From positions 1-53,480 of IMG/VR virus record IMGVR_UViG_3300047557_000938: a DNA stretch of 53,480 nucleotides. One strand, 5' to 3'. This document shows, piece after piece, positions 4,715-48,606 of this stretch (its first letter is position 1; every line of letters starts with the position of its first letter). The notes beneath the pieces were generated by a model. It did no database searches and was not told the DNA's origin. It worked only from the letters and a program-made list of their open reading frames with translations. Source of the DNA: a virus (taxonomy: Duplodnaviria; Caudoviricetes). The translations under genes were made by a program, and so were the position numbers.

Positions 4715-4790
4715 TTGAGTCTTGTGCCAAAGTAGGAGACACTTGTCTCAGACGGCTCCGAGGGGGAGCCCGAGGGACCGAGGGGGTCTC
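4715..4790 (+). promoter_or_regulatory. Island promoter P1 with two GAGGG-loop leader hairpins
   Basis: TTGAGT-N17-GACACT; GGCTCC-GAGGG-GGAGCC (4754-4770) and GGGACC-GAGGG-GGTCTC (4774-4790). Confidence 0.65.
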
Positions 4791-4792
4791 AC

Positions 4793-5155
4793 ATGAGCAA
4801 GTACACAATCATGGCGCCGGGTGCGTGGTGCACGGACATTGAACCCGCCATGGAAGATCGCATGAATGAACTTGAAAAGGGGACTGCGTACGAACACAGC
4901 ATTGAAGTGACTCAACAGTTTCACGACCCGTCAAGAGTTCTGCGACGCGGCAAAGGGACACAGCACCGATTCGACTTGTCATCCCTCGAGGCTGTCGCGT
5001 TCTTGCGAGGCGAGGCCGAATACAGATGGGACTGGAATCTCGACACCATGAAGGAGGCCGACGGCCCCGAGGACCGCGAGTATCGGAGACGGAATGCCCA
5101 GGCCGCGAAGAAGTTGATGGATCGTTGCGACGCGATCTTGAAGGCACAGTCATAA
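4793..5155 (+). CDS. Hypothetical protein, paralog of 37964-38317
   Basis: Shared EKGT, GxGT, FLxGEAxYR and AAxxLMxxC motifs. Confidence 0.75.
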   Translation: MSKYTIMAPGAWCTDIEPAMEDRMNELEKGTAYEHSIEVTQQFHDPSRVLRRGKGTQHRFDLSSLEAVAFLRGEAEYRWDWNLDTMKEADGPEDREYRRRNAQAAKKLMDRCDAILKAQS

Positions 5156-5394
5156 TGACCATCGATGGGATCGGCTCGGCTCGCAGACTGTTCGACGGTC
5201 GCTGCCAGGAGTTCGACGGCACCTACTGGGCATGGCCCGTGGATGGGTATTGGGATCTTCATCACGCGGAGAGAGGCGTTCAGCCAGACGGCTCCGATGT
5301 GATTGAGGAAGGCTTGCCGTCACTTGCGGCGGCGCGTGCGGCGGCTCGGGAGCGCCGAGACTTCTATGGTTGGCTCAACAAGTTGGAGGGGTGA
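5155..5394 (+). CDS. Hypothetical protein
   Basis: TAATG coupling; MTIDGIG start. Confidence 0.55.
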   Translation: MTIDGIGSARRLFDGRCQEFDGTYWAWPVDGYWDLHHAERGVQPDGSDVIEEGLPSLAAARAAARERRDFYGWLNKLEG

Positions 5395-5573
5395 TGGGGA
5401 TCAGGGGCAAGTGTGTGTGGTGTGAAGGAAAGGCTGATCGTTTATGGCACACCCGTTGCGGGCCAGAGGCCATGTGTGGGCCATGTGCCGAGACGCGCGC
5501 GATTGCGGCGCTTGCTGAGTTGGCGCGGCATCGTGAGAAAGAGTTGAGGGATCAGGGAAGGGAGGGGTCGTGA
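5394..5573 (+). CDS. Small Cys-rich (zinc-finger-like) protein
   Basis: CVWC...CGPC; GGAGGGG RBS; TGATG coupling. Confidence 0.55.
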   Translation: MGIRGKCVWCEGKADRLWHTRCGPEAMCGPCAETRAIAALAELARHREKELRDQGREGS

Positions 5574-5833
5574 TTGTTGAGATGATTGACGGGCAGACGT
5601 TCGTGTCGCCTGAGGTGGCTGAGGATGTGTCGGACGAGATGCTGACCTTGGCTGAGCAAGTGTGCGACGGGTACTTCGACGACGATGAACGAATCGACTG
5701 GGAGGAGTTCATTGACCGCATGTGTAAAGAGGGCTACTTGGATGACGGGACACGCCTTGAGTTCCAGGAGTATGACAACCCGGCGATCTCCAAGATCAAA
5801 CGACACGTTCGGAACTACAGGAGTGCATCATGA
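5570..5833 (+). CDS. Acidic hypothetical protein
   Basis: GGAGGGG RBS, GTGA overlap. Confidence 0.6.
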   Translation: MIVEMIDGQTFVSPEVAEDVSDEMLTLAEQVCDGYFDDDERIDWEEFIDRMCKEGYLDDGTRLEFQEYDNPAISKIKRHVRNYRSAS

Positions 5834-6084
5834 TTGTGTGGACGGGTCAGCCGTATCGGTTCACGGAAGAGGACGAGCGAGTGTTGGAGTCCCTCACTCA
5901 GGCGGGCTTTCTGGACAAAGATCAGCCGTTCAATGTTCTTGAGGTGGTGAATGCGGCCCGGACTTTTGAGCGAGCCCGAATCATTGACAACATAGATAGG
6001 CTGCCTGCAGCCGAACGAGTCTTGCTGACGAACTTTGTGATCTGGCTGACTCTCGGCGCACCCGATAGCAAGAGGGAGGCGTAG
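5830..6084 (+). CDS. Hypothetical protein
   Basis: AGGAG RBS, ATGA overlap. Confidence 0.55.
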   Translation: MIVWTGQPYRFTEEDERVLESLTQAGFLDKDQPFNVLEVVNAARTFERARIIDNIDRLPAAERVLLTNFVIWLTLGAPDSKREA

Positions 6085-7028: not shown

Positions 7029-7119
7029 TACCACCAAACATCCTGAGTACCACCAAACAGGGCAAATACCACCAAAACGGGCATCCCACACCAAACCTCC
7101 CCCAAGAAATACCACCAAA
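7029..7119 (+). repeat. TACCACCAAA direct repeats, mostly 19-bp period
   Basis: Copies at 7029, 7048, 7067, 7086 (degenerate) and 7110 in an intergenic region. Confidence 0.8.
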
Positions 7120-7171
7120 TCGGGCATTCCGGCATCCCCTAAATAGGGCCAAAACGGGCAGCCGCCCCTTG

Positions 7172-7226
7172 TTGCCAAGAGGGCCCCCCAGGCGTGATCC
7201 TTGTTTCAAGAGCCCGAGGGGGGCTC
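7172..7226 (+). promoter_or_regulatory. Island promoter P2 with GAGGG-loop hairpin
   Basis: TTGCCA-N18-GATCCT; GAGCCC-GAGGG-GGGCTC (7210-7226); AAAWCGGGCA boxes upstream. Confidence 0.7.
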
Positions 7227-7242
7227 AGAGGGAGGCAGTCAC

Positions 7243-8097
7243 ATGAGGACCGACATTCACAGGCCAGCCAGCGAGGCCTTCAACCCCGAGGCCTACGACT
7301 GCCACGGCGTGTTCGACAACCACGAGTTGTGGGGCAACGCCGCGGCGCGCGGGCAGGCGATCCGCTCACTCGTGAACCAGGGCTACAGGTTCGGCCACGG
7401 CAGCAGCGACATGTGCGGTCATTGCGGGGCGCGCATGCGCTACGCGGCACTCATGGTTCACCGCGAGGTCAAGGAGTTCATCTTCGTAGGCGAGACCTGC
7501 CTCGACAATCGGTTCCAACTGGCGAAGGGCGAGTTCGCTCGACTCCGCAAGGCAGGCAAGTTGAACTCGCAGCGGGCCACCCGCGCCGAGGTCGCCGAGC
7601 GCACGTTCGAAGAGAACCCGTGGCTCAACGAGATCGTGGAGCATGAACTCACGGACGGGTTCCTGGCATCGCTCCACGAACAAGCCCGCGAGGGCAAGAT
7701 CCTCTCGGCCCGGCAGATCGAGGCAGGCCAGGCAGCCCTCGTGAAGGCGATCCAGCGGAAGGCTGAGCGTGCAATCGAAGACGCCAACGCAGTCCCCGCA
7801 CCCGAGGGCAAGGTCACCGTTCGGGGAGAGGTGAAGAGCAAGAAGTGGCAGGAGAGCGAGTTCGGGGGCCAGTTGAAGATGCTGGTCCTCGCAGACGAGG
7901 GCTTCAAGGTGTGGAGCACAGTCCCAGCCTCGCTCCTGGGGACCTCGGTCCTAGTGGACGGGGATTGGATCGAGACCCTGGACGTGAATGTGGGCGAGCG
8001 GGTGGAGTTCACCGCCACGCTGACCCGCTCGAGCAACGACGAGACGTTCGCAATCGCGAAGCGTCCGACCAAGGCAATCAACCTAAGCAGGGCATAG
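7243..8097 (+). CDS. Hypothetical protein with CGHCG motif and probable C-terminal OB fold
   Basis: RBS GGAGG before ATG 7243; C-terminal beta pattern GERVEFTATL...KRPTKA. Confidence 0.7.
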   Translation: MRTDIHRPASEAFNPEAYDCHGVFDNHELWGNAAARGQAIRSLVNQGYRFGHGSSDMCGHCGARMRYAALMVHREVKEFIFVGETCLDNRFQLAKGEFARLRKAGKLNSQRATRAEVAERTFEENPWLNEIVEHELTDGFLASLHEQAREGKILSARQIEAGQAALVKAIQRKAERAIEDANAVPAPEGKVTVRGEVKSKKWQESEFGGQLKMLVLADEGFKVWSTVPASLLGTSVLVDGDWIETLDVNVGERVEFTATLTRSSNDETFAIAKRPTKAINLSRA

Positions 8098-8557: not shown

Positions 8558-8740
8558 ATGACGAAATACAAGACCCTCATAGGGATGAACTATGAGGGCA
8601 AGAGGGTTGAGGCAGACACGATCATCGAAGACCTTCCCAGCAAGAGCCTCCCGTGGCTTGTGGAGCAGGGACTCGTAGAGAAAGTTGAAGGAGAATCCAG
8701 CAAACGTGAGCCCAAGTCTCCGAGCGAAGGGGACGAGTAA
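8558..8740 (+). CDS. Small virion-associated protein
   Basis: AAGGAG RBS; MTKYKTLIG...WLVEQGLVE; precedes tail tube genes. Confidence 0.6.
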   Translation: MTKYKTLIGMNYEGKRVEADTIIEDLPSKSLPWLVEQGLVEKVEGESSKREPKSPSEGDE

Positions 8741-9462
8741 TGCCTACGTTCCGTCATGGCAAGAAGACAGTCGTACTGTTCAATGGCACCGACATGAGCC
8801 CGTTCTTGAACGAGGCGACCGAGACCACTGAGATCGAGACCGCCGAGACCACAGCGTTCGGTGACGGCGATAAGACGTACATCGTCGGCCTCGCCGACGG
8901 CACTATCAGCACTAGCGGCATGTTCGATTCATCGGCTGGCGCAAGTGACCCGGTGCTGCGAGGCATGATCGGTGAGGATGACAACACGTTCACGGTCCTG
9001 CCGGAAGGCGCAACCTCTGGCTCGCGGAGCATCATCGCGAATGGACAACTGACCTCTTACGAGGTGTCAAGTCCCGTGAGTGACGTTGTGGCAATCAGCG
9101 CGGAGATTCAAGCCGACGGTGGCTTGCTGCACGGTGTGGCACTCAACGGGCTCACAAACACCGGGTCCGCATCAGCCACCACCACAGGAGTGAACAACGG
9201 GTCAGCCACAAGTAACGGCGCGCTGTTCAACCTACATGTCACAAGCAACACCCGCAACGGGTCCGCCAGTGTTGTTGTGCAGCACTCCGCTGACAACAGC
9301 ACCTACACGGACCTAGTGGCCTTCACCGCTGTCTCCGCGTCCACCACGGTCGGGGAGTCAATCACCAGCACAGGAACTGTGAACCAGTACCTGCGCACTA
9401 GGAGCACCCTCGCCGGTGCGTCCGGCTCAATCACCTACCACGTATCGGCAGCAAGGAGATAA
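8740..9462 (+). CDS. Tail tube-like protein 1 with C-terminal extension
   Basis: ETAETTAFG, GLADGTIS.SGMFD and TSYEVSSPV shared with next gene. Confidence 0.75.
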   Translation: MPTFRHGKKTVVLFNGTDMSPFLNEATETTEIETAETTAFGDGDKTYIVGLADGTISTSGMFDSSAGASDPVLRGMIGEDDNTFTVLPEGATSGSRSIIANGQLTSYEVSSPVSDVVAISAEIQADGGLLHGVALNGLTNTGSASATTTGVNNGSATSNGALFNLHVTSNTRNGSASVVVQHSADNSTYTDLVAFTAVSASTTVGESITSTGTVNQYLRTRSTLAGASGSITYHVSAARR

Positions 9463-9465
9463 CAA

Positions 9466-9894
9466 ATGCCAACATTCAAGCATGGCAAGAACGCCTACTT
9501 CGCGCTCGACGGCACCGCAGCGTCCCTCGTGAACATCTCAGATGTTCTCAATGAGATCAGCATGCCCCGTGAGATCGAAACGGCTGAGACGACCGCGTTC
9601 GGTTCGGGCGACAAGTCCTACATCAGCGGTCTGGCTGACGCAACCATCTCCCTCTCGGGAATGTTCGACGCCACCACCAACACCCTCATCTCGGGTGACA
9701 TTACCAACCTGAAGACCGGCTCGGTTGCTTCGCTGTCGTTCGAGTACGGGCCGTCAGGCTCTGTCGCGACTAGCCCGAAGTTCACGGGTGAGGCAATCAT
9801 CACGTCCTACGAGGTTTCGAGCCCCGTGGGTGATGTGGTGACGTTCTCGCTCGAGTTGCAGGTTACGGGCGGCGTCACCGCTACAACGTTCTAG
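9466..9894 (+). CDS. Major tail tube protein
   Basis: Tail-tube pattern (FTGEAIITSYEVSSPVGDVVTFSLELQVTG); directly before chaperone and tape measure. Confidence 0.85.
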   Translation: MPTFKHGKNAYFALDGTAASLVNISDVLNEISMPREIETAETTAFGSGDKSYISGLADATISLSGMFDATTNTLISGDITNLKTGSVASLSFEYGPSGSVATSPKFTGEAIITSYEVSSPVGDVVTFSLELQVTGGVTATTF

Positions 9895-20751: not shown

Positions 20752-21414
20752 GTGAGGGTTGCTCTTATCACCGCGTGTTACGGGTCTTACGATCCTGTTC
20801 GGGAACTGCCTGAGGGCGTGGGCTTCGACGAGGCGATCTGTGTCACGGATGATGCGAGTCTAGTAACAGAGTCTTGGCGGGTCGTGGTGGAGCCCCGTGA
20901 CGAGCATCCGAGGTTGGCGGCGAAGCGTCCGAAGATGATGCCGTGGTTGTTCACGGACTGCGATGCGGCGATATGGTTGGATGCCTCGTTTGAAGTGACG
21001 TCTCGGCAGTTCGGTGTGTGGGCGCGCGGGCATCTGGAGCGGAACGATTTCATTGTGTGGACTCACCCTGAGGGTAGATTCGGGATCGAGCAGGAAGCGC
21101 CTGTCTGCTGGGATTGGCCCAAGTACAAGGACTTCGATATGCGGGGGCAACTAGCGGCGTACATGGCTGATGGGATGCCGGAGCGTTGGGGACTGTTCGC
21201 GTGCGGCATGATCGGATGGGTATTCAACGATGCCACGAGGGCTCTTGGTGAGGCTTGGTATCGGGAGAATGTTGAGTGGAGTATCCAGGATCAGATAAGT
21301 CTGCCTTATCTCTTGTGGCGGGAGGGTAAGAAGTTCGGGGTGTGGACCGCGAACGAGTATCAGAACCCGTATCTGCGGCTTAGATGGGATGAGCGACCGA
21401 ATCCTCAGTTGTAG
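20752..21414 (+). CDS. DUF616-like glycosyltransferase
   Basis: TACYGSYD, CVTD, IWLDAS, HP.R, QDQISLPYLLW. Confidence 0.75.
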   Translation: MRVALITACYGSYDPVRELPEGVGFDEAICVTDDASLVTESWRVVVEPRDEHPRLAAKRPKMMPWLFTDCDAAIWLDASFEVTSRQFGVWARGHLERNDFIVWTHPEGRFGIEQEAPVCWDWPKYKDFDMRGQLAAYMADGMPERWGLFACGMIGWVFNDATRALGEAWYRENVEWSIQDQISLPYLLWREGKKFGVWTANEYQNPYLRLRWDERPNPQL

Positions 21415-24008: not shown

Positions 24009-24014
24009 GCTTGC

Positions 24015-24021
24015 TATCCTA
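24015..24021. promoter_or_regulatory. Overlapping divergent -10 elements (TATCCT on +, TAGGAT on -)
   Basis: Only divergent intergenic gap; minus-strand -10 lies 7 nt before ATG 24008. Confidence 0.5.
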
Positions 24022-24040
24022 GGACACAAGGAGGCTCCCC

Positions 24041-25530: not shown

Positions 25531-25578
25531 AAGAACTAGGGGCAAATCGGGCATTTCGGGCCAATGTTGTGAATGTTG

Positions 25579-32308: not shown

Positions 32309-32649
32309 CGGAAGTGTGGTGCACCTTCGAGAAGGTCGGGTTCCATCATTGGCCCGACGCGGCGGACATTCTTCCCCGTCGAGCGTATCTGTCGGATCGT
32401 CACAGGCATCTGTTCAAGATGCGGATCACCGTGCCCGTACTGCACGACGACCGCGACATTGAGTTTCATGAACTGCGCGACTACGCCGAGGAGTGGTGGC
32501 CCGAAGGCGGCGAGATGGGTTCCATGAGTTGCGAGGCAATAGCGCAATCGCTCGGGGCTCACATCATGGACGGGTTCCACATTCCGTGGGTTGAAGTTGA
32601 AGTGTCAGAAGACGGCGAGTGTGGAGCAAGCGTTAGGATGGAAACATGA
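32305..32649 (+). CDS. dpdL: QueD-like T-fold protein, predicted CDG decarboxylase (DpdL-like)
   Basis: GFHHWP, LSDRHRHLF (LxxxHRHxF), DRDIEF, SCE, VSEDGE.G; ATGA overlap start. Confidence 0.7.
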   Translation: MTEVWCTFEKVGFHHWPDAADILPRRAYLSDRHRHLFKMRITVPVLHDDRDIEFHELRDYAEEWWPEGGEMGSMSCEAIAQSLGAHIMDGFHIPWVEVEVSEDGECGASVRMET

Positions 32650-33014
32650 CGTTCAGGATCAGTAAAGAGTTCTCATTCTCGTCATCGCATCAACTCCACG
32701 GGCTTAGAGAAGGCCACCCATGCGGTCGCGTTCACGGTCACAACTACGTCGTGAAGGTCACCCTGTCGGGTGAGAAGTTGAACGGCAGCGGGTTCCTGTT
32801 GGACTACAACGACTTGAAGCCTTTCGGTCACTGGCTGGACGACGAGTTGGATCATCGCCACTTGAACGACGTTCTCAACTTTCAACCCTCAGCCGAGAAC
32901 ATGGCGCAATACTTCGCCTTCATGGTGGAGAACACGGTGAACGTTCCCGAGGGAGTGAACATCAGCGTGTCCGTGTCGGAGACTCCTAAGACCTGGGCGA
33001 CCTGGGAGAACTGA
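32646..33014 (+). CDS. queD: 6-carboxy-5,6,7,8-tetrahydropterin synthase
   Basis: CGRVHGHNY, LDHRHLND, PSAEN, VSETP. Confidence 0.92.
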   Translation: MTFRISKEFSFSSSHQLHGLREGHPCGRVHGHNYVVKVTLSGEKLNGSGFLLDYNDLKPFGHWLDDELDHRHLNDVLNFQPSAENMAQYFAFMVENTVNVPEGVNISVSVSETPKTWATWEN

Positions 33015-33736
33015 TGAACATGGCGGAAGAGATCGCCGAACTGAAACTCGTTCTAGATGTGAATGAGATATTCGGCCCCACCGTACAAGGCGAAGGCCCA
33101 TCGACGGGTGTTCGCTGCGCGTTCCTTCGACTGTCCGGCTGCAACCTCACTTGCGTATGGTGCGACACCCCGTACACGTGGGACTGGAAAGGTCAAAACG
33201 GCACGCCGTACTCCAAGGAAGCCGAAACGCACCCCATGTCGGTCCACGACGTATGGTTTCAACTAACCGGCTACGGTGTTCCCTTGTATGTCATCTCGGG
33301 CGGTGAACCCATGATGCAGCAGGAGGCTCTAGGAGCGTTGATCCCCCGACTCATGGCTGGCGGCAAACAAGTCGAGGTGGAAACGAATGGAACAATCAAG
33401 CCGAAGATCGAGCCCACCCGATTCAACGTGTCACCGAAACTCACTCACTCGGGAGTGCGCGAGAAGATCAGATTCAAGCCCGAAACGTTGAACGCCTACG
33501 TCGGTCGCTCCATTTTCAAGTTTGTGTGTCAGACAGTGAAAGACCTGGACGAAGTGATGTTCATGGCAGCCGAAGCCGACATACCCGACAGCGCGATTTG
33601 GATCATGCCCGAAGGACGCGACCCCGTAACACTCATGTCTCACGCCGAGGCGATCACGGACGAAGCGATCGCTCGAGGCTGGAACATCACAGGCCGACTT
33701 CACGTGATGACGTGGGGCGCAAGGAGAGGTGTATGA
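33014..33736 (+). CDS. queE: 7-carboxy-7-deazaguanine synthase (radical SAM)
   Basis: [34 protein letters not shown]. Confidence 0.93.
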
Positions 33737-34605
33737 AACTCACATGGCAAGACATTGAGATCGAAGCCCGCAATCTGGCGAAGCGCTGGGCGGGTCGCTC
33801 CTTCTCAGGTGTCTACGGCGTGCCGCAAGGTGGAGTGCCCGTCGCGTTGATCGTGTCGGACCTTCTTGATCTGCCTATTCTTGACGAGCCAGACATTCAC
33901 GCCTTGATCGTGGATGATCTAGTGGACTCAGGTCGCACCCTCTCTAGATACAACCAGGCGTGCGACGCCCTGTATCGGAAGCCCCATTCACCGAATCATC
34001 TCGCTGTTGGAGCGACCGAGGTGGACGAGTGGTTGATCTTCCCGTGGGAGAAAGACGACGGCGATCCGAACGAGATCGTTGTGCGGCTCCTGGAGTACGT
34101 GGGTGAAGACCCGACTCGGGAAGGACTCTTGGACACACCGAAGCGAGTGTTGAAGGCGTTCCGTGAAATGACAGAGGGGTACAAGAAAGACCCCGGCGAG
34201 ATTCTCTCCACTGTGTTCAACGAGGACTTCGATCAGATGGTGTGCCTTCACAACATCGAGTTCGTGTCCATGTGCGAGCACCACTTGCAGCCGTTCCGTG
34301 GAACAGCCGCCGTCGGCTACATACCCAACGGGCAGGTCGTGGGTCTATCCAAGTTGGCTCGCCTCGTAGACGCCTACGCTCGCCGCCTTCAAGTGCAGGA
34401 ACGCATGACGGAGCAGATCGCTGCTGCAATGAACGAGCATCTTGCGCCCGCAGGAGTCGCCGTCTACATTGAAGCGCATCACTCCTGCATGGGTAACCGT
34501 GGTGTTCGCAAGCATGAAGGCCGCATGGTTACACAGAAACTGACGGGGCTCATGAAGGATGATGCCGCCGCACGCGCCGAGTTCATGGGGCTAGTTCAGA
34601 AATAG
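33733..34605 (+). CDS. folE: Phosphoribosyltransferase-GTP cyclohydrolase I fusion
   Basis: N-term [25 protein letters not shown] (Gpt-like); C-term [33 protein letters not shown]. Confidence 0.9.
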
Positions 34606-34613: not shown

Positions 34614-35084
34614 ATGACTGGCAAGAAGCCAGGGCGCAAGCCGCCGAAGGTCACAGATCAAAAGGTTCAAGACTTGATCAAAGCCTTGGAGTACGGCAAC
34701 TACATGGACGTGGCGTGCAAGATCGCTGGCGTCGGTGTGACGAGCGTGTATCGCTGGCTGAATGAAGGCGCGGAAGAAGCCAACAGGATCGCCGCAGGAC
34801 TGGAACCCGACTCCGATCGCGCCACATACATCGAGGTCATGCAGGCTATCGAGAAGGCTCGGAGCGAGGCCGAGGCTAGAAACGTGGCAATCATTCAACG
34901 CACCGCGCAGGAAGGCACATGGCAGGCGGCTGCCTGGTGGTTGGAGCGCACGCGACCCAACAAGTGGGGCCGTTATGTGCGCACGGAGGCTACGGCTCCC
35001 GAGGACACTAGCGTTGAGATGACAGTGAACGACGACGATTTGGAGTCCCTCGTGAATCGCATCCTGGGCGATGACTCTGATTGA
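34614..35084 (+). CDS. terS: Terminase small subunit
   Basis: HTH (ACKIAGV..TSVYRW), WQAAAWWLER; directly before TerL. Confidence 0.8.
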   Translation: MTGKKPGRKPPKVTDQKVQDLIKALEYGNYMDVACKIAGVGVTSVYRWLNEGAEEANRIAAGLEPDSDRATYIEVMQAIEKARSEAEARNVAIIQRTAQEGTWQAAAWWLERTRPNKWGRYVRTEATAPEDTSVEMTVNDDDLESLVNRILGDDSD

Positions 35085-36618
35085 CCGTGTTCTCGCCGCT
35101 GACCCAACGAAGCGGAAGGAACTCTACGAGGCCCTAACGCCGCAACGAAAGCAAGAACTTGCCTCGCTCCTGCTTGCTCGAGCGGACGACCGATGGGCGC
35201 GATACGCGAACGATCCCGTGTCCTTCGTTACTGAGGGTCTTGGCGAACAAGTGTGGTCTAAGCAGATACAAATCTTGGAGTCTCTGCGGGATAACAAACG
35301 CACCGCTGTTCCTGCTTGCCACGCTCCAGGGAAGTCGCACATAGCGGCCCGTGCGATTGCTTGGTGGGTGACTGTTCACCCGCCTGAGACTGTCCGTGTG
35401 GTCACGACCGCTACAACCTTCCGGCAAGTGAAGGGCATCTTGTGGCCTCACATTCGACGGCTCCACGCTGCACATGACTTGCCCGGTGAAGTTCACACAA
35501 CGGAGTGGAAGATCGACGACATAATCATCGCCGATGGTTTCTCCCCTGCTGATCATAACGAGGCGGCTGTTCAAGGTATCCACGCAGAAAATCTGCTCAT
35601 TGTTGTGGACGAGGCGGGCGGTATCTCCGACACCATCGGTCAAGCATTAGAAGCACTCATGACAGGTAGACATACACGGCTTCTGCTGCTTGGTAACCCA
35701 CCTACTGATCGCATGGGTTCATGGTTCGAGCGCGCCTGTTCTTCTGGGCTCTACAACGTGATCTCTATTGCAGCCGAAAGCACACCGAACTTCACCGGGG
35801 AGAAGATTGGGCCGTGGTCACGAAACCTTGTTGATCAGACCTGGGTTGATGAAGTCACTCGCACATTCGGGGAGGACTCACCGTTCGTTCAAGCAAGAGT
35901 CCATGCACGATTCCCCAGAACCGTAGCCAACGCGGTGATACCCATCGACTGGATCGAACGCTCACAAGACCTGGAGAGTGAACCCGGTCCCGTGCGTCTA
36001 GGTGTGGACGTTGCCGCCGATGGTGGAGACGAGTTCGTGATCGCCGAGGTGGACGGCTGGACGGCACGGATCGTGCATGCGAGCAGACATAACGCAAGCC
36101 CTGTTGAGGTAGCGGGACGGGTACTAGAAGCAATCAAGAAGGCTGAAGCCAAGCACGCGACCCGAGGCATCAACCAGCCCGTGCGAGTCAAGATCGACTC
36201 GATAGGTGTCGGCTGGGGAGTGGCTGGTCTACTCGAAGAATGGGGCTTGGAAGGTAGACACAACAGTGAAGTGTGGGCTGTGAACGTAGCGCAGGCAGCC
36301 TATGATCGAGATCAGTTCGCCAATCAACGAGCCGAGATGTGGTGGACGGCTCGGGAACTTCTTCAACCCAACGAAGAGGGTGAGCAAGAACTTGCCCTTG
36401 AAGTGGATCATCAGACGGCGGCTCAACTCGCGGCGCCCTCATATCGGTCCAACAGCACAGGCCGGCTGCAGATCGAATCCAAGGACGAGATGCGGAAACG
36501 AGGTGTCGGCTCCCCCGACCGCGCCGAAGCCATTCTTCTAGCCTTGTTTGAGCCACCTAGACACGAGATTCCAGCCGTGGCTCCCCTGAGCATCACCGGG
36601 CAGAACTCGTGGATCTAG
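35071..36618 (+). CDS. terL: Terminase large subunit
   Basis: Walker A HAPGKS, Walker B IVVDEA, GNP, nuclease GVDVA and SPDRAEA. Confidence 0.93.
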   Translation: MTLIDRVLAADPTKRKELYEALTPQRKQELASLLLARADDRWARYANDPVSFVTEGLGEQVWSKQIQILESLRDNKRTAVPACHAPGKSHIAARAIAWWVTVHPPETVRVVTTATTFRQVKGILWPHIRRLHAAHDLPGEVHTTEWKIDDIIIADGFSPADHNEAAVQGIHAENLLIVVDEAGGISDTIGQALEALMTGRHTRLLLLGNPPTDRMGSWFERACSSGLYNVISIAAESTPNFTGEKIGPWSRNLVDQTWVDEVTRTFGEDSPFVQARVHARFPRTVANAVIPIDWIERSQDLESEPGPVRLGVDVAADGGDEFVIAEVDGWTARIVHASRHNASPVEVAGRVLEAIKKAEAKHATRGINQPVRVKIDSIGVGWGVAGLLEEWGLEGRHNSEVWAVNVAQAAYDRDQFANQRAEMWWTARELLQPNEEGEQELALEVDHQTAAQLAAPSYRSNSTGRLQIESKDEMRKRGVGSPDRAEAILLALFEPPRHEIPAVAPLSITGQNSWI

Positions 36619-36724
36619 GGCCCTCCTAGGGCTCCAGGGCGCGCCCTCTAGGGCTTGCTCAGCCCAGATTCTAGGGGGGCCAAATCGGGCAAAACGGACA
36701 TTCTGGGAACTTTGTGAAATGGGC

Positions 36725-36782
36725 TTGTCTGAGCCCGAGCCCTTCAAGACACTTGGGGTACGGCAGGGCGAGGGGCCCAGCC
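36725..36782 (+). promoter_or_regulatory. Island promoter P4 with GAGGG-loop hairpin
   Basis: TTGTCT-N17-GACACT; GGC.GGGC-GAGGG-GCCC.GCC; AAATCGGGCA and AAAACGGACA at 36682-36700. Confidence 0.65.
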
Positions 36783-36798
36783 AGAGGGGATAGGCAAC

Positions 36799-36978
36799 AT
36801 GAGCAAGTGGGTTGAAATCGCAGAGGGAGAGGTAGGCCTCTTCACCTCGACTGGCAAGTTCTTCATGCTGGGCGAGACTGAGTTGGTCAAAGTCCACGAG
36901 GTCAAAGGCGACGAGGTGTACGTCCTCAACGGGGACGTTGTCTTCAAGACCAATCAAGTGAAGTTCGTGGGAGCCTGA
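36799..36978 (+). CDS. Hypothetical protein (59 aa, not in ORF track)
   Basis: GAGGGG RBS; MSKWVEIAEGEV... Confidence 0.55.
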   Translation: MSKWVEIAEGEVGLFTSTGKFFMLGETELVKVHEVKGDEVYVLNGDVVFKTNQVKFVGA

Positions 36979-38317: not shown

Positions 38318-38441
38318 TGATGCCTAAGACAGCCGATTCGCACGCGGTCGAGCCCCCCGAGGCACCCGACTTGTGCGACGACTGCCACTACGAACTCAGC
38401 GAGTGTTCATGCTTCTATCCACCCGAGCCGTGGGACGACTG

Positions 38442-39062
38442 ATGCATGACGACCTCTTCTCACTACCTGAACTGCCGTATGCGGGAACGAGTGGGCATTC
38501 GGGTTCAAGCACAAGCGAGAGACGTGCCCGTGAGGCAGACAAGTCAGGTCGGACAAAAGATCGACAGAAAATGACCTTGGAAGCCTTGGCGCAAGCACAA
38601 GACCTAGGGCTCACATGGAAGGAACTCGCCGATCTCACGGGTTGGCATCACGGGACAACGAGTGGGGCTCTATCCGTCTTACACATGACGGGCCGCGTGT
38701 GTCGCCTTGCAGAGACACGGAACAAGTGCAAGGTGTATGTCTTGCCCGAGTTTGTTGATCACAGGCCCACGGAGCCGCATCGTGGTAGCATGAAGGGACG
38801 GGCAAGCAACCCAAGGGAGGCTGTCATGCTGACAGAGCACCAGGCTGATGTGTTGATTCAAGGACACGACACGCTCGTAAACCAGGTGTCGCGCACCATC
38901 ACAGAACACACTCATTCGGATAATCGCGAGCGCGCCGAGCGAATCATTGAGACAGTCGCCGAGTGGCTGTCCTCATATCGGCCACCCGAGATCGCCGGAG
39001 ACTACTGCACTCCGTTGGACGTTACGGCGTTCATTCTTCGGAAGGGTGAAGTCAAGTCGTAG
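38442..39062 (+). CDS. Winged-helix DNA-binding protein
   Basis: GLTWKELADLTGWHHGTTSGALSVLH..GRV. Confidence 0.65.
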   Translation: MHDDLFSLPELPYAGTSGHSGSSTSERRAREADKSGRTKDRQKMTLEALAQAQDLGLTWKELADLTGWHHGTTSGALSVLHMTGRVCRLAETRNKCKVYVLPEFVDHRPTEPHRGSMKGRASNPREAVMLTEHQADVLIQGHDTLVNQVSRTITEHTHSDNRERAERIIETVAEWLSSYRPPEIAGDYCTPLDVTAFILRKGEVKS

Positions 39063-39185
39063 ACGACAAGATTTCACGAAGGAGGGGTGGAGTGGAAAGC
39101 AAGATCACGCGTTGCATGTGTGGAGCGTGGACGTATGAGGGAAAACCATGTAGCACTTGTGCTGCACTTCTGAGGGGAAGAGAAC

Positions 39186-39401
39186 ATGAGTTATGGCTGG
39201 AGGGTGGCAGAGCCGCCCGTTGATCCACCGAACCCGCCGACCATTGACTGCTCGGACTGTGAGGGTTCAGGAACGATAACGGAAGATGACACTCCATCTA
39301 CGGAGTGCTTGAAGTGCGACGGATCGGGTCAGGTCACTTTCGACCCATACGACGATCCTTACGCACCTGATAACTGGAAAGAGTGGGAGGGGATCGCGTG
39401 A
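39186..39401 (+). CDS. DnaJ-type zinc-finger small protein
   Basis: CSDCEGSG...CLKCDGSG. Confidence 0.65.
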   Translation: MSYGWRVAEPPVDPPNPPTIDCSDCEGSGTITEDDTPSTECLKCDGSGQVTFDPYDDPYAPDNWKEWEGIA

Positions 39402-39546
39402 TGCGTAGAACATTCATCGCCAATGGGACAGAACTCGGCATCGAAGGCAACATCTTGATCACGGTGTACGACAACGGAGCAACACTCGCAGTGAAAACTC
39501 CTGGCTGGTCCTCATGGGGTCCTCCTGTTATGGCTCAGGAGACGAC

Positions 39547-39792
39547 GTGAATGCGATGATCCAAATGGGTTCGATAGAATGGATGACTGACGCACTTTGT
39601 CCTCAGGTTTCTCAGGACTTGTTCTTCCCTGAGAAAGGAAAGAGAGTAGACGATGCAAAAAGTGTCTGTCGCGACTGCCCTGTTACAGATAAATGCCTAC
39701 AACTTGCCCTGTCTATCCCTGGTGGTGTGTATGGCATCTGGGGCGGCACAACTGAAGCCGAACGACGTCGTCTAAGACGACGCGCTGTCTGA
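39547..39792 (+). CDS. whiB: WhiB-family transcription factor
   Basis: W...ALC, DLFFP, AKSVCRDCPV..C, GIWGG, ERRRL. Confidence 0.92.
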   Translation: MNAMIQMGSIEWMTDALCPQVSQDLFFPEKGKRVDDAKSVCRDCPVTDKCLQLALSIPGGVYGIWGGTTEAERRRLRRRAV

Positions 39793-40396: not shown

Positions 40397-40630
40397 GTGG
40401 CGTGGACCCTGCTTCTTCAGTTACACCCGTACAGGTGCCCTAAATGTTCGATCCTCATTAGAACTGTGAACACGACCGACGGTAGACTTGTTGTGATAGA
40501 TGAAGAGCCAACTAAAGAAGGCAACATTATTCCGTGGCCCTCTTCATCACCAACGGGACTCGCGCAAGCGCGTTTCGTCAATGTACCCGTAAGTGATGGT
40601 CCGATGTGGAAACTTCACTCATGTCAGTAG
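40397..40630 (+). CDS. Hypothetical Cys-containing protein
   Basis: CPKC...HSC. Confidence 0.45.
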   Translation: MAWTLLLQLHPYRCPKCSILIRTVNTTDGRLVVIDEEPTKEGNIIPWPSSSPTGLAQARFVNVPVSDGPMWKLHSCQ

Positions 40631-40649
40631 CATCTTCGTCGGAGGCGAC

Positions 40650-40892
40650 ATGGAGTTCAGTCAAGAAGAAGACGATCTTGAACGGGCAATCATCGCCATG
40701 GAAAAGTTTATGGAGGGCGATGGTGTAATCCTGACCGGGTGGGTTGTCATCGCAGAGTTCATAAATCAAGACGGTGATCTTGTTTTGGCAGGGTATGCAC
40801 GAAGTCGCATGCCGTATTGGCGCATCAACGGGTTGTTAGACGCCGGACCCGAAGCCTTGGCCTACGCCGAAGAGTGGGACATAGAGGAATGA
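40650..40892 (+). CDS. Hypothetical protein
   Basis: GGAGG RBS; TGWVVIAE...PYWRINGLL. Confidence 0.6.
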   Translation: MEFSQEEDDLERAIIAMEKFMEGDGVILTGWVVIAEFINQDGDLVLAGYARSRMPYWRINGLLDAGPEALAYAEEWDIEE

Positions 40893-41086
40893 AGAACGAT
40901 CTTCTAGAACTCTTAGATGACGAGATTCATAATGTGTCCGAAATGTCCGATGAAGATCTTGGCTTGTTCTTGAAGAAGATTGAACGCTCCTACGTTCATG
41001 TGTTGATCGAACAAAGTCTTCGCGTGAACAAAGTGTCGAATGTGACTGGCGTGTCGCGGATAGGAACACGGCCCCGTAGCGTCTAG
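40889..41086 (+). CDS. Hypothetical protein
   Basis: ATGA overlap. Confidence 0.45.
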   Translation: MKNDLLELLDDEIHNVSEMSDEDLGLFLKKIERSYVHVLIEQSLRVNKVSNVTGVSRIGTRPRSV

Positions 41087-41096
41087 TCTCCGTCGT

Positions 41097-41315
41097 GTGA
41101 CCCTGCAAGACGCAGCCTGTTCAGGAGCAGACCCACGGCTCTTCGACGCCGTGTCTGGCGAGCACGTCTTCACCGCACTCTTGTATTGCGAGCGTTGCGC
41201 TGTCCGACCTGAGTGCGAGGATTACGTCAAGCCCGCCAAGAGTCACTTTGATGGAGTGGCAGGCGGGAAGGTATGGCAAAACGGAGTGCCGGTTGATCCG
41301 GCCTTATTTGATTAG
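41097..41315 (+). CDS. Divergent WhiB-like protein
   Basis: AAC...DPRLF...CERCAV..EC...GVAGG. Confidence 0.7.
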   Translation: MTLQDAACSGADPRLFDAVSGEHVFTALLYCERCAVRPECEDYVKPAKSHFDGVAGGKVWQNGVPVDPALFD

Positions 41316-41739: not shown

Positions 41740-41868
41740 GTGACTCCACTTCTCACGTTCGCCGTGTCCATACACGAGTTGTACGCGGCGTTCCGTGAGG
41801 CGGGATTCACGGACGCTCAGGCTATGTACCTGACCGCACAGAGGATGAATGCCGATGCACGCCGATAA
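41740..41868 (+). CDS. Small leaderless protein (42 aa, not in ORF track)
   Basis: TAGACT 41728-41733 six bases before GTG; HELYAAFREAGFTDAQA. Confidence 0.55.
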   Translation: MTPLLTFAVSIHELYAAFREAGFTDAQAMYLTAQRMNADARR

Positions 41869-43114
41869 CTACGACTTTACCGAACTTGGCTCTTCGGGTC
41901 TGCGCCGTTCGGGCGGCACGATCAACGAGGAGTTCCTGTCCCAACTTCAGGGAGTCAAGGGCTTCAAGGTCTATCGGGAGATGCACGATAACGATCCTGT
42001 CATCGGGGCGATGCTCTACGCGATCGACAAGGTCATTACGAGGCTTGAGTGGCATGTTGAAGGGGAAGACGAGCGCACCGCAGTATTCGTTGAAGAGTGC
42101 TTGCATGACATGAGCGACTCTTGGGACGCCACCCTGCAGAACATCTTGTCGATGCTTGTGTACGGGTGGTCGTTCCATGAGATCGTGTACAAGATTCGTG
42201 GCGGTCACAGCAACGATCCCAAGTCCAACAGCAACTACAAGGACTATCGGATTGGCTGGCGCAAGTGGCCCGTGCGAGCCCAAGAGACTCTTCAAGAGTG
42301 GATGATTGACCCTCGCGGCGGCATTCAGGGAATGGTTCAGATCGATCCGTCGGGCGGCGGCCTTCACCGTATCCCTATCGAGAAGGCACTCCTGTTCCGC
42401 ACGACCACGAACCGAAATAATCCTGAGGGCTATTCGCTCCTTCGTAACGCCTATCGTCCGTGGTTCTACAAGCGGCGCATCGAAGAGATTGAAGCGATTG
42501 GTATCGAACGTGATCTTGCAGGGCTACCCATGGCTTACGTGCCACCCGAGTACTTATCGTCCACAGCATCCAATACTCAGAAGGCCGTACTGAACTCCAT
42601 CACCGAAATCGTTCAGAACGTGAAGAGGAACGAGCAAGAAGGCATCGTGTTTCCCGCCGCCTACGACGAGCAGGGCAATCGCGTGTTCGATCTGACTCTC
42701 CTGTCGGCTAGTGGTGGAAGGCAGTTCGACACAGGCGCGGTCATTCAACGCTACGACCAGCGCATCGCTATGAGTCTTCTGTCCGACTTCTTGCTGCTCG
42801 GCTCGGATCGCGTTGGCTCGTTTGCGCTTGGAACAGCCAAAGTGGACTTGTGGACCCTTGCCGTGGACTCCATCGCCAAAAGCATCGCCGAAGTTGTGAA
42901 TCAGTTTGCGATCCCACGGCTACTCAAACTCAACGCCATGCGAATGGACAAACTGCCACGACTCACATACGGGCAGGTGAACAGCGTGGAACTCACAGAG
43001 GTCGCCGACTTCGTTTCTAAACTCGCCGCAGCAGGCATACTCATGCCCGACAGGGAACTCGAAGCCCACCTTCGGAACATGGCTGATCTGCCGGACGCTG
43101 AACCTCTCGTGTGA
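41849..43114 (+). CDS. Portal protein (Mu gp29 / DUF935-like)
   Basis: YGWSFHEIVY, NPEG.SLLR.AY..W, GSFALG; followed by MuF. Confidence 0.88.
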   Translation: MPMHADNYDFTELGSSGLRRSGGTINEEFLSQLQGVKGFKVYREMHDNDPVIGAMLYAIDKVITRLEWHVEGEDERTAVFVEECLHDMSDSWDATLQNILSMLVYGWSFHEIVYKIRGGHSNDPKSNSNYKDYRIGWRKWPVRAQETLQEWMIDPRGGIQGMVQIDPSGGGLHRIPIEKALLFRTTTNRNNPEGYSLLRNAYRPWFYKRRIEEIEAIGIERDLAGLPMAYVPPEYLSSTASNTQKAVLNSITEIVQNVKRNEQEGIVFPAAYDEQGNRVFDLTLLSASGGRQFDTGAVIQRYDQRIAMSLLSDFLLLGSDRVGSFALGTAKVDLWTLAVDSIAKSIAEVVNQFAIPRLLKLNAMRMDKLPRLTYGQVNSVELTEVADFVSKLAAAGILMPDRELEAHLRNMADLPDAEPLV

Positions 43115-46609: not shown

Positions 46610-46965
46610 TGGCGGGTTTAGTAGACGCAGGCGAACACCTGATGCTGAATGGATTAGCGGGCGGTGTCACGTTCGTTTCTCTTCACACGGCTGATCCAAG
46701 CACGGGTGGCTCGAGCGAGGTGAGTGCTTCGCCATACACGCGCGAGGCTGTGTCATGGGCCGCCGCTGCTTCTGGCTCTGTGAAGTCAAACGCTCAGATC
46801 GTCTTCGATGTTCCAGGCTCAACGACGATCACTCATTTGGGTTACTGGTCCGCCAGCACGGCTGGCACCTTCTATGGTTCGCGGGCTTTGGACACTCCGC
46901 AGACTTACGCCACGGTTGGCACCTACACAATCGCTAGTGGGAACATAACCGAAACTGTGTCGTGA
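46609..46965 (+). CDS. Small virion structural protein
   Basis: VSLHTADP...YTREAVSW...ITHLGYW; TAATG coupling. Confidence 0.65.
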   Translation: MAGLVDAGEHLMLNGLAGGVTFVSLHTADPSTGGSSEVSASPYTREAVSWAAAASGSVKSNAQIVFDVPGSTTITHLGYWSASTAGTFYGSRALDTPQTYATVGTYTIASGNITETVS

Positions 46966-48266
46966 CGTATTGGGTTGCCCTAGACCCAAGCCTTGAATGG
47001 GGCGAGGGATCTGGCTCATGGGCGTCGCCTTCTCTCACCCCTCGATACAACAAACCTTCTTTCGTTGAGGTCAAGGCTTCCACCACATTCGATTCCACGT
47101 CAGCCTCATGGGTTGTCTCCTGGCCGATACCGTATGGCGTATCGCCGATCTACTCTCAACTGTCGAGCGAGTATTCAACCTACGGTGATCTGAAAGCGGC
47201 AAGCGTCACAAACTACGCGCTCCGTGAAAGCCAGCCGCCCTACTACATCGGGCGCACCTACATAACACTCGCGGGCTTGTACGCCACTTACGGCGACATG
47301 CAAGCACCACTCGTCTACACCGATCTCACTCGCAGCCTGCAAGCCGACGGCATCGTAAACGGCAACGTCACCTCGAGCGGGTCCGTCATCGGCATAAGCC
47401 TTATTCAACTCTCGGGCTCCGTCTCCGGCTCCACTTTGTCCACAGGTTTCATCACGGGACAAGTCGGCTTCAATGGCAGCACCACAGGCAGCGGGGTCTC
47501 GTCGGGCTCACTTGTGGGCACGCCCGGCTATCAAGGCTCAACAAGCGACAGCAGCGTCAGTTCAGGCAGCGTTCTAGGCGAAGTCGGATTCACCGGGTTC
47601 ATCGTTGGAGCAGTCACGTCCACGGGGTCGGTTACTGGTGGTGAAGGCAACACAGGGTTCGTCTCCGGCTCCGTAACCAGCACGGGTGTGGTCATAGGTT
47701 CGCCGCAACTGTCTGGCTCCGTGATAGGTGATTCCACATCACAAGGCTTCACTCAGGGTCAAGCGAACAGGGAAGGCTTCATCTCCGGCTCCGTGTCGAG
47801 CGCGGGAACAGTCGTCGGCGGGGAGGGCAACACAGGCAGCGTCAGCGGCTCCACAACAAACACAGGAGCCGTAACGGGGACGGCGGGCTATCTGGGGAGT
47901 GTTCAAGCCGTTGAGGTCTCCACAGGCCTCATACAAGGAAAGATCAACGTCCTTGGAACCGTAACGGGAACCACTAAGAGCAGCGGCACGGTGATTGGAA
48001 CGGGCGGCGAACCTCCCGCACCGCCGAGCCCCACACCATCAGGTCAAGGCTACGCCTGGTCGTTCAGCGGCGACAGCGTGCCGATCACAGACTTCTTCGG
48101 CTCCATATCAGGGCAAATAACGTCCTCGGGAACCATAATCGGCACGATCGGTGTGATTGGCGGTGCGATTGGAACCACTATCTTGACAGGTGAGATGAAG
48201 GGCGGAACAAAGAGGCTCCGCGAGGACGACGATCTTGAAGTCCTCTCCGCGCTCGGGTTGCTCTAA
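46962..48266 (+). CDS. Ser/Gly/Thr-rich repetitive virion (fibre-like) protein
   Basis: About 21-residue repeats G.VSGS..S.G.V.G. Confidence 0.65.
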   Translation: MTYWVALDPSLEWGEGSGSWASPSLTPRYNKPSFVEVKASTTFDSTSASWVVSWPIPYGVSPIYSQLSSEYSTYGDLKAASVTNYALRESQPPYYIGRTYITLAGLYATYGDMQAPLVYTDLTRSLQADGIVNGNVTSSGSVIGISLIQLSGSVSGSTLSTGFITGQVGFNGSTTGSGVSSGSLVGTPGYQGSTSDSSVSSGSVLGEVGFTGFIVGAVTSTGSVTGGEGNTGFVSGSVTSTGVVIGSPQLSGSVIGDSTSQGFTQGQANREGFISGSVSSAGTVVGGEGNTGSVSGSTTNTGAVTGTAGYLGSVQAVEVSTGLIQGKINVLGTVTGTTKSSGTVIGTGGEPPAPPSPTPSGQGYAWSFSGDSVPITDFFGSISGQITSSGTIIGTIGVIGGAIGTTILTGEMKGGTKRLREDDDLEVLSALGLL

Positions 48267-48275
48267 ACTTGGCGC

Positions 48276-48476
48276 ATGACAAAGATTGTGCGAGCCGGGA
48301 CCGCATTGAAGGCGTTGATCGACGGACGTATCAGACACGTCATTGTTCAAACTGTCACGGATCAAAACAACATCAGCGTGAGACTTGGAACGAACGAGTC
48401 AGATAATCCAACCATTGTGAACGCGGATCGCACGGCCTCAACTAAGACTAGAGGCACGCTTTTCGTGGAGGAGTAG
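48276..48476 (+). CDS. Small leaderless hypothetical protein
   Basis: TAAACT 48264-48269 six bases before ATG. Confidence 0.55.
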   Translation: MTKIVRAGTALKALIDGRIRHVIVQTVTDQNNISVRLGTNESDNPTIVNADRTASTKTRGTLFVEE

Positions 48477-48486
48477 GCCCCAACCG

Positions 48487-48606
48487 AAAACGGGCAAATC
48501 GGGCAGGATCGCCCCCTAGAAATCGGGCTAAATCGGGCATTCCTTGAATGTTGTTGCCTAAGGGCTCCCCAGGCGTGATGCTTGTTTCAACGGGTCGAGG
48601 GGCCCG
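48487..48606 (+). promoter_or_regulatory. Island promoter P6 with four AAAWCGGGCW boxes and GAGG-loop hairpin
   Basis: Boxes at 48487, 48496, 48520, 48530; TTGCCT-N17-GATGCT; CGGGTC-GAGG-GGCCCG. Confidence 0.7.

Follow-up and report, generated by a model that had tools for sequence, protein, structure and literature searches.

The question raised by this locus is what a short hairpin, repeated at six places behind putative promoters and capped each time by the same purine loop, does for the phage that carries it. The window, meaning the whole stretch of DNA that was analysed, is the entire virus record IMGVR_UViG_3300047557_000938 (Duplodnaviria; Caudoviricetes), 53,480 bases long and bounded by direct terminal repeats. 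A preliminary description had proposed an element acting at the RNA level, with a covarying stem and a fixed GAGG(G) loop, that serves either as a recognition site for a protein or an antisense RNA or as a Shine-Dalgarno (SD)-like 5' stabiliser. Judged from inferred start sites, the hairpins would be transcribed as the first structured element of the mRNAs issuing from one phage promoter class, and the "SD-like 5' stabiliser" appears to fit this anatomy best, with a hairpin predicted to begin at about +1 to +3 after the -10 element, a polypurine GAGG/AGGG loop and the real SD next to it.

The hairpins were located by reading the sequence and by a mechanical scan. All lie on the + strand, and the six of the preliminary description are all present:

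4754-4770, + strand: hairpin GGCTCC GAGGG GGAGCC (6 base pairs, bp), -11.2 kcal/mol
4774-4790, + strand: hairpin, second of a tandem pair, GGGACC GAGGG GGTCTC with one G-U pair, -8.2 kcal/mol
7210-7226, + strand: hairpin GAGCCC GAGGG GGGCTC, -11.2 kcal/mol, pair probabilities 0.99-1.0
25616-25634, + strand: hairpin TGAGGCC GAGGG GGCCTCA (7 bp), -12.8 kcal/mol
36766-36778, + strand: weak hairpin GGGC GAGGG GCCC (4 bp), -6.7 kcal/mol, pair probability 0.38 in the leader
48591-48606, + strand: hairpin CGGGTC GAGG GGCCCG, equally readable as a GAGGG loop with one bulged U, -9.8 kcal/mol

In isolation the six hairpins have energies of -6.7 to -12.8 kcal/mol, and in predicted leader folds the hairpin forms with a probability of 0.84-1.0 in five of the six, including the tandem pair at 4754 and 4774 (0.84-1.0), the sixth being 36766 (0.38). 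A covariance model built from nine seeds, used beside a pattern scan of relatives, scores them at 26.8 bits (4754), 17 bits (4774), 28.8 bits (7210; E 1.3e-4), 30.3 bits (25616; E 5.5e-5), 25.5 bits (36766) and 17.3 bits (48591; E 0.08). Most of the hairpins had been said to lie upstream of a separate ribosome-binding site, and five of the six do precede a separate SD and start codon; the exception is 4774, whose GAGGG loop, 8 nucleotides (nt) before ATG 4793, is the only SD of that gene.

Each hairpin sits in a cassette whose order would be -35 element, spacer, -10 element, about 5-8 nt, stem and loop, SD and start codon. The window holds five such cassettes, one of them with two hairpins and one preceded by a block of repeats (lengths of encoded products in amino acids, aa; ORF, open reading frame):

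4738-4795, + strand: cassette 1, with GACACT (4738-4743) and TG, hairpins 4754-4770 and 4774-4790, and the start of a 120-aa ORF
7055-7159, + strand: five AAANNGGGC repeats, at 7055, 7074, 7117, 7141 and 7151, upstream of cassette 2
7172-7245, + strand: cassette 2, with TTGCCA (7172-7177), an 18-nt spacer, GATCCT (7196-7201) and TG, hairpin 7210-7226, SD GAGGGAGG (7228-7235) and ATG 7243 (284 aa); tail genes downstream
25544-25653, + strand: cassette 3, with a AAATCGGGC repeat at 25544, TTGCCA (25579-25584), an 18-nt spacer, GACCCT (25603-25608) and TG, hairpin 25616-25634, SD GAGGGG (25641-25646) and ATG 25651 (75 aa), then Gam and ERF recombination genes
36682-36801, + strand: cassette 4, directly 3' of the gene for the terminase large subunit, with a AAATCGGGC repeat at 36682, GACACT (36748-36753) and TG, hairpin 36766-36778, SD AGAGGGG (36783-36789) and ATG 36799 (59 aa)
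48487-48625, + strand: cassette 5, with four AAAWCGGGC repeats (48487-48538), TTGCCT (48554-48559), a 17-nt spacer, GATGCT (48577-48582) and TG, hairpin 48591-48606, SD GAGGGG (48613-48618) and ATG 48623 (49 aa), then head genes

The five cassettes share a -10-like word, GAYNCT followed by TG, at 4738, 7196, 25603, 36748 and 48577, and the gaps from this word to the hairpin are 10, 8, 7, 12 and 8 nt respectively; the earlier statement that a hairpin follows five -10 elements by 7-10 nt stands for the five elements, and its range becomes 7-12 nt. GAYNCTTGNNNNA occurs eight times in the window against 3.4 expected (0 of 100 shuffles), and five of the eight occurrences directly precede a hairpin; of the other three, two lie on the - strand (1718 and 35889) and one on the + strand (43306). 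TTGCC(A/T) lies 17-18 nt upstream of the -10 word at three sites (7210, 25616 and 48591). A regular TAnnnT hexamer in the same setting, TAGACT-TG (TAGACTTG), is found on the + strand at 8466, 40483, 41728 and 52574, each time without a hairpin; at least three of the four copies stand just upstream of gene starts, and the copy at 52574 follows a strong hairpin (~52513-52545) 3' of the major head gene. The TAGACT-TG word, with its four occurrences in the window, supports taking GAYNCT-TG for a -10 element that begins with G, and the cassette sites are treated as putative promoters on the strength of motif conservation and of analogy with relatives.

AAA(A/T)CGGGC direct repeats stand upstream of four of the five cassettes in one to five copies about 10-40 nt apart (7055-7159, 25544-25552, 36682-36690 and 48487-48538). 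AAANCGGGC occurs ten times on the + strand of the window, never on its - strand and never on the + strand of the 11 relatives checked, and the AAAWCGGGC repeats are probably sites for a putative transcription factor specific to the window phage. The spacers between -35 and -10 hold a run of five G or five C, e.g. ACGGGGGCG, TAGGGGGTC or CTCCCCC (L036, L090, L031, L034, L037 and L040 among the relatives; 7180-7189 and 48562-48569 in the window). Canonical sigma-70 consensus matches number 1, 3 and 3 in three segments of the window, each below its shuffle mean (7.0, 7.2 and 5.4) and only the first by more than two standard deviations. Two further identities for these sites were rejected by reading: a sigma-54 promoter, for which the spacing fits 7196 and fails 4738 and 36748, and a G-quadruplex, for which each site has fewer than four G-runs.

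Covariation was measured on a set of 20 non-redundant hairpins of seven pairs each (A6). The set omits two rows of relative L143 (a MAFFT shift), bulged or 4-nt-loop hairpins (48591 of the window, L139 6710 and L141 14936), the 7-nt-loop hairpin of L151, and near-identical duplicates (L032, L035/L036 (versus G001), L048, L095, L096, L145 and L148). Paired cells make up 92.9% of the set against 59.7% in shuffles, a percentage inflated by the selection of the aligned sequences for pairing, a point to be set against the stabiliser reading given below; cells changed on both sides number 45 against 12.6, and the covariation score is 0.892 against 0.219 (0 of 500 shuffles), with slid controls at or below 0.17. 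Compensatory changes occur in six of the seven pairs, the closing C-G pair is invariant (20 of 20), and G-U pairs are tolerated in seven cells. An alignment derived from the covariance model and RNAalifold agree with this result. Covariation among homologues, one of the two points on which the preliminary description had said the idea could fail, is present.

Relatives were gathered by a search with the terminase, which gave 80 viral loci of 55-73% identity; single-protein locus searches with two poorly conserved proteins, the products of 46962-48266 and 7243-8097, yielded no relatives, the former, a 434-aa protein, having only six weak homologues. The covariance model gave 17 matches at E up to 3 in 206 kb and 10 matches in 1.03 Mb, all of them (17 of 17 and 10 of 10) on the + (coding) strand, and model and pattern scan alike showed the element in several of the relatives. 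The cassette of relatives reads promoter, 5-7 nt, hairpin, 12-22 nt including an SD, and start codon; their upstream promoters are plain (TTGACG-17-TACCGT, TGcTATGAT, TATTCT), and in one relative a T-tailed terminator stands just upstream of the cassette promoter. A scan that left the loop unspecified and required a TAnnnT hexamer, six or more stem pairs, an SD and a start codon returned three recurrent coding-strand loops, GAGGG, AAGGG and AGGGA, the only other recurrent loop being GCCT, at a single conserved site in ten near-identical loci. The loops fall into lineages:

GAGGG loop: window, G001, L038, L090
AAGGG loop: L031, L034, L037, L040, L048
AGGGA loop: L143/L145/L148, L083/L095/L096

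The element is present in at least ten distinct uncultured phage records, and inside each genome the loop is uniform and the stems differ between copies. A cassette lies directly 3' of the terminase gene in four phages with four stems: GGGC/GCCC (window), GGGACC/GGTCCC (L038), GCCACC/GGTGGC (L037) and GGTC/GACC (L031). When the promoter word GGGGGTCATGCTATGAT is taken as an independent anchor, an AAGGG hairpin follows in five of five copies with four different stems, and the window-type promoter pattern, searched in metagenomes as a negative control, gave 68 chance matches of which none (0 of 68) is followed by a hairpin. These three results, the anchor, the post-terminase cassettes and the metagenome matches, are free of the circularity of selection for pairing. 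Scans with two promoter words found no additional contigs beyond the known ones, a viral-contig scan for CTTGTTTCAA-N4-8-GAGGGG found 26 loci, all chance matches without hairpin context, and a per-genome count of generic hairpin loops was too noisy for use. Arthrobacter phage Laroye has four GAGG-loop hairpins in its first 50 kb, all inside annotated genes. Covariation and conservation in relatives together support the proposal of an RNA-level element with a covarying stem and a fixed loop.

A second class of hairpin may exist beside this family. The candidate at 39167-39180 (+ strand), CTTCT GAGG GGAAG, is a mini-hairpin 5 nt before ATG 39186 with an energy of -3.0 kcal/mol and a leader-fold probability within the same 0.84-1.0; it has no clear -10 and its SD-like GAGGGGAAG lies partly within the stem, and the site (39167-39188) was left out of the core family. 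Homologous sites carry other arms (ACTCT/GGAGT in L031, GCTCT/GGAGC in L036). YCUCU-GAGG-GGAGR mini-hairpins stand 4-5 nt before start codons here, at 13762 and 14570 of L031 and at 4638 and 14191 of L036, with arms that covary between phages, and may be SD-sequestering elements of a separate class.

Could such hairpins arise by chance around frequent SD-like words, or be intrinsic terminators of the upstream unit? GAGGG is indeed common on the + strand of the window (116 copies against 49 on the - strand), and raw counts of GAGG(G)-loop hairpins with short stems are near shuffle level: 14 against 8.9 at four pairs (9 of 200 shuffles reach the observed number) and 7 against 3.6 at five pairs (13 of 200), both modest excesses. 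At six or more pairs, six hairpins against 1.25 in shuffles (0 of 200) is a clear enrichment. When the test is made conditional on the loop word, 11 C-RAGGG-G words on the + strand include five with at least three further pairs (P 1.5e-4) and four with at least five (P 1e-6), against none of five on the - strand; a sixth such word, at 48596, is the bulged hairpin, and those at 25640 and 48612 are true SDs of hairpin cassettes. Relatives, moreover, keep the element with different stems. As to termination, a T-run (U-run in the RNA) follows none of the hairpins, their tails are purine-rich, the 46 terminator-like sites found include none of the six, and they lie downstream, not upstream, of the promoter, so that the intrinsic terminator was rejected as an identity. 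Chance and termination are both contradicted by these observations, and a reading in either sense is barely credible. The terminator-like sites of the window are themselves at chance level.

Structure, covariation, conservation and position relative to promoter and start codon are matters of observation, and the last of these was catalogued for 26 hairpins, of which 25 have a -10-like hexamer upstream (window 4774 has none of its own). From hexamer to first paired base there are 7 nt in 10 of 25 and 5 nt in 7 of 25 (7-12 nt in the window), and the usual spacing rule places the stem at about -1 to +2 for gaps of 5 or 7 nt (17 of 25). Stems have 4-9 variable pairs closed by C-G around the fixed purine loop, with energies of -3.6 to -14.3 kcal/mol. 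Between hairpin end and start codon lie 12-22 nt, except at window 4774 (2 nt), and the SD begins 1-6 nt 3' of the hairpin. A start codon at SD spacing after the loop is clear in one case of 25 (window 4774) and absent in about 22 of 25, G001 3776 being ambiguous and the L034 row a scan artefact. The loop word is that of the cassettes' true SDs, CGAGGGG, and GAGGG and GGAGG are enriched before starts genome-wide.

Taken together, these features argue for a 5'-terminal mRNA stabiliser that has an SD-like loop and may in addition load ribosomes, a reading to which we give somewhat less than an even chance. The stem would leave few unpaired 5' bases and in this way keep the host's RNase J and RNase E from degrading the mRNA in a 5'-end-dependent manner. 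The loop with its closing G contains GAGG or AGGG (RAGGGG, or AGGGA in one lineage), which fits a purine word complementary to the 3' end of 16S ribosomal RNA (rRNA); as an SD look-alike, RAGGGG may base-pair with the pyrimidine-rich tail at that end, the complementarity being judged against the general CCUCC core. A 30S subunit held at the loop would shield the mRNA further, in the manner of STAB-SD and polypurine stabilisers, and could pass to the true SD directly downstream. The transcription start site, the stabilising effect and the docking of 30S are what we infer from this arrangement. In favour of it are the selection on the structure, the orientation, always on the coding strand, the regular geometry of the cassettes, the promoter anchors that are independent of the hairpin, the plain promoters of relatives, the word shared by loop and true SDs, the separate GAGGG word in G001 and the precedents for 5' stabilisers in actinobacterial and Bacillus hosts.

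Several points weigh against the stabiliser. The -10 in the window is non-canonical, and a consensus promoter scan of the window called none of the cassette promoters; some promoter-like sites there have no hairpin. The gaps of 10 nt (4754) and 12 nt (36766) would leave 4-6 unpaired 5' bases. For plain stabilisation a hairpin could do without a fixed loop, five nucleotides leave little room for pairing with 16S rRNA, and in L031 and L143 the loops (AAGGG and AGGGA) do not match the SDs downstream of them (GGAGG and GAAAGG). The hairpin is absent from the whole records G002-G005, whose terminases are about 70% identical, and is therefore dispensable. Finally, a loop that is uniform per genome and differs by lineage fits a lineage-specific protein partner equally well.

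Such a partner would be a sequence-specific RNA-binding protein, of phage or host, that reads the loop and closing pair on all transcripts of these promoters and could serve in antitermination, in repressing or activating translation, or in protecting or processing the RNA. Hairpins bound by proteins usually show this pattern of an invariant loop and closing pair on a variable stem, and the loop variants, uniform within a genome, switch between lineages (GAGGG, AAGGG, AGGGA). The hairpin also co-occurs with genes absent from the hairpin-less G002, G003 and G005 (30022-30384, 30377-30610, 27131-27697 and 38373-39062), and many small ORFs of no assigned function follow the cassettes. Set against this, no RNA-binding domain was found in 50 window proteins compared with Pfam or in 29 compared with PHROGs; the nameable lineage-restricted genes encode a RusA-like resolvase, a helix-turn-helix (HTH) DNA-binding protein, Gam and another HTH protein; and the co-occurrence is confounded by shared descent, the comparison of gene content having named no RNA-binding candidate. 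That lineages of 55-73% terminase identity have the AGGG core in common points instead to a universal partner. In G001, furthermore, the GAGGG word also stands outside the loop: three cassettes (2856-2874, 34207-34223 and 35477-35493; L114-L116) have a hairpin whose loop is A-rich (AAAGT, AGAGA and AAAGA), with GAGGG immediately 5' of it. SD-like word and hairpin can thus be separated while each stays close to the 5' end, which suggests two cooperating parts and not one protein-recognition fold. The protein reading is the main rival to the stabiliser; the uniformity of the loop within genomes favours it, the failure to find an RNA-binding candidate among the scanned proteins weakens it, and it is held to be rather unlikely. 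The antisense RNA that had been offered as an alternative partner finds no support, there being one weak 4-bp hairpin with a CCCTC loop on the + strand and no consistent complement of the loop within 120 nt downstream (CCCT in 2 and CCTC in 3 of 19 stretches).

A mainly translational role, in which the hairpin abuts the SD, fixes a short leader fold with the SD single-stranded and may also, as a standby site, boost initiation at each operon's first gene, draws on the same geometry: the distances of hairpin end to start codon and to SD, the high probability of the hairpin in five of six predicted leader folds, and the loop of 4774, which is the SD itself. Start-associated sequences of other actinophages are likewise at ribosome-binding sites. 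The window's internal gene starts, however, lack the hairpin, which is found only after promoters. Two predicted folds (25616 and 48591) pair part of the true SD with coding sequence, and insulation by itself would have no need of a fixed loop; this role is less likely, and we regard it as distinctly improbable. Less likely too is an element acting as DNA, whether as part of the promoter (the initially transcribed region), as a cruciform or as the site of a DNA-binding protein that reads the asymmetric CGAGGGG. Phage N4 reportedly has hairpin promoters, the element adjoins promoters with upstream AAAWCGGGC repeats that probably bind a protein, and among relatives only those with the hairpin have a certain conserved HTH protein. 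Compensatory changes in the arms would nevertheless be of no use to a reader of duplex DNA; the stems tolerate G-U pairs (G-T at the DNA level), the coding strand carries the loop in every case, and the position downstream of the -10 is mostly outside the open-complex bubble, all of which makes a DNA-level role very unlikely.

A broader proposal, possible but doubtful, is that one trans-acting partner reads the lineage-specific loop on every transcript of the promoter class, making the hairpin the operator of a phage-wide post-transcriptional programme. In one form of it, a decoy SD in the loop may park 30S on the extreme 5' end and pass it to the true SD 12-16 nt downstream, acting at the same time as an RNase shield; in another, a small phage RNA-binding protein, unrecognised so far, may co-evolve with the loop.

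Several known systems resemble the element in part. Lambda boxB is a GNRA-like pentaloop bound by N protein, and nut sites occur two per genome with boxA; the HK022 put RNAs are said to be about 70 nt long with two stems, and the aprE leader of B. subtilis is said to carry a 5'-terminal stem-loop stabiliser. BoxB is like the hairpins as a short promoter-proximal RNA hairpin whose pentaloop is read by sequence and whose stem is less constrained; the boxB loop, however, ends in A, whereas GAGGG and AAGGG end in G and AGGGA does not begin with G. No N-like family was found among the window proteins scanned with Pfam and PHROGs, small N-like proteins being easily missed, and arginine-rich windows lie mostly in alternative-frame ORFs. 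A CsrA/RsmA-type hairpin was rejected, as the GAGGG and AAGGG loops lack GGA and only the AGGGA lineage has it; actinobacteria are not known to have CsrA. Against Rfam, the window gave no matches at gathering thresholds and two unrelated weak matches at E up to 1, neither near a hairpin.

Closer likenesses are found among mRNA stabilisers. The excerpted text of PMC2358910 describes stabilisation of mycobacterial katG mRNA by a polypurine sequence, a gyrase mRNA leader of M. smegmatis with a 5' stem-loop and then an SD, and STAB-SD or polypurine 5' stabilisers that include B. thuringiensis cryIIIA and the phage SP82 leader in B. subtilis; it also refers to the 5' stem-loop stabilisers of E. coli ompA and papA. 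Like STAB-SD, the hairpin element would have an SD-like purine word near the 5' end of the mRNA that mostly appears not to be used for a protein start, in hosts that are Gram-positive or actinobacterial, and SP82 is a phage precedent; unlike it, the element shows the word in, or closes with it, a hairpin loop, and is repeated at five or six promoters per genome as a structured motif conserved across a phage family. Like the 5'-terminal stem-loop stabilisers, it would place a stable hairpin at the predicted 5' end or a few bases from it, with an SD next in line, which is the arrangement of gyrase mRNA. Those stabilisers work whatever the loop, whereas here loop and closing pair are invariant, and an added sequence-specific contact would be expected because of this invariance.

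Start-associated sequences (SAS) are the remaining comparison. In the parts of PMC3203893 available, SAS is a short SD-containing motif before a subset of Cluster K mycobacteriophage genes, and in those of PMC7302621 Cluster EF Microbacterium phages carry SAS or extended SAS (ESAS). Like the hairpins, these motifs are short, repeated and SD-containing, stand before a subset of actinophage genes and sometimes have inverted repeats; as far as these excerpts go, their function is unexplained, and the partner suspected is one from host or phage. In the 13-nt SAS consensus a purine core is flanked by GGG/CCC ends, as in the minimal hairpin 36766, which matches the consensus with three mismatches. 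By the same excerpts, SAS lies at the ribosome-binding site and is conserved in sequence, and ESAS has conserved arms with a varying spacer; in the hairpins, by contrast, the arms vary and the loop is fixed, and the hairpins come straight after a promoter, 12-22 nt ahead of starts, with a separate SD downstream of them. The Cluster K SAS word at up to three mismatches has 12 matches in the window against 13.2 expected and is not enriched. The words 'stem-loop', 'hairpin' and 'inverted' each occur 0 times in the portion of PMC5513430 available. The element fails the tests for terminator, boxB, SAS and every Rfam family, and it appears to differ from STAB-SD, 5' stem-loops and SAS/ESAS in its variable arms and fixed loop, its site after the promoter and its structured conservation across the family. 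No description of this motif was found in the literature searched, which does not prove that none has been published.

The genome that carries the cassettes has nearly all its genes on the + strand and a G+C content of about 57%. Its structural genes are distant kin of those of Laroye, and the genes that bear on host and structure are:

35071-36618: terminase large subunit, 51% identity to Laroye
41849-43114: portal, 56% identity to Laroye
51511-52488: major head protein, 55% identity to Laroye
8740-9894: major tail proteins, Laroye-like
39514-39792: WhiB-family regulator
49793-50110: DUF732 protein

The major head protein is thus the product of 51511-52488 and not that of 46962-48266. The host is probably an actinobacterium, because of the WhiB and DUF732 genes, the Laroye-like structural genes, a RusA-like gene with its closest DNA matches in Gordonia phages, and a terminase whose best genome matches are in metagenome-assembled genomes of Actinomycetota, none of which is proof. 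Of the sequencing runs listed as containing the stretch, none is recorded as RNA, and one DNA run may be its source. A search of the window for transfer RNA genes found none, and neither megablast with 8 kb of the window nor blastn with one cassette gave a match among cultured phages.

Other regions of the window are noted for their own sake. The presence of a radical-SAM enzyme gene (33014-33736) and a GTP cyclohydrolase I gene (33526-34605) within 32646-34605, with homologues in relative L037, suggests DNA modification of the 7-deazaguanine type. The sole clear block on the - strand, 21405-24029, holds an NAD-dependent sugar epimerase/dehydratase, and glycosyltransferase-like genes lie on the + strand at 2496-3548 and 20752-21414; these may serve sugar modification of the virion, of DNA or of the host surface. 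At 40397-41315, four short overlapping ORFs in different frames (40397-40630, 40593-40892, 40817-41086 and 41097-41315), all with homologues in relatives, may be genuine small genes or a single frameshifted gene.

Gene control in actinobacteriophages is poorly understood, and several start-associated motifs have been described without a known function. The cassette is a compact module of promoter, hairpin and SD, recurrent and covarying, and offers a concrete test case of mRNA shielding and ribosome loading in hosts with both RNase J and RNase E. It is a candidate for a new RNA family, of which Rfam has none, and possibly a ready-made part of 5' untranslated regions for actinobacterial expression. 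If the loop binds 30S or a dedicated protein, the element may shed light on the unexplained SAS and ESAS motifs; and a decoy SD that parks 30S would, if true, be a built-in device for ribosome loading and RNase shielding of a kind not described for phages.

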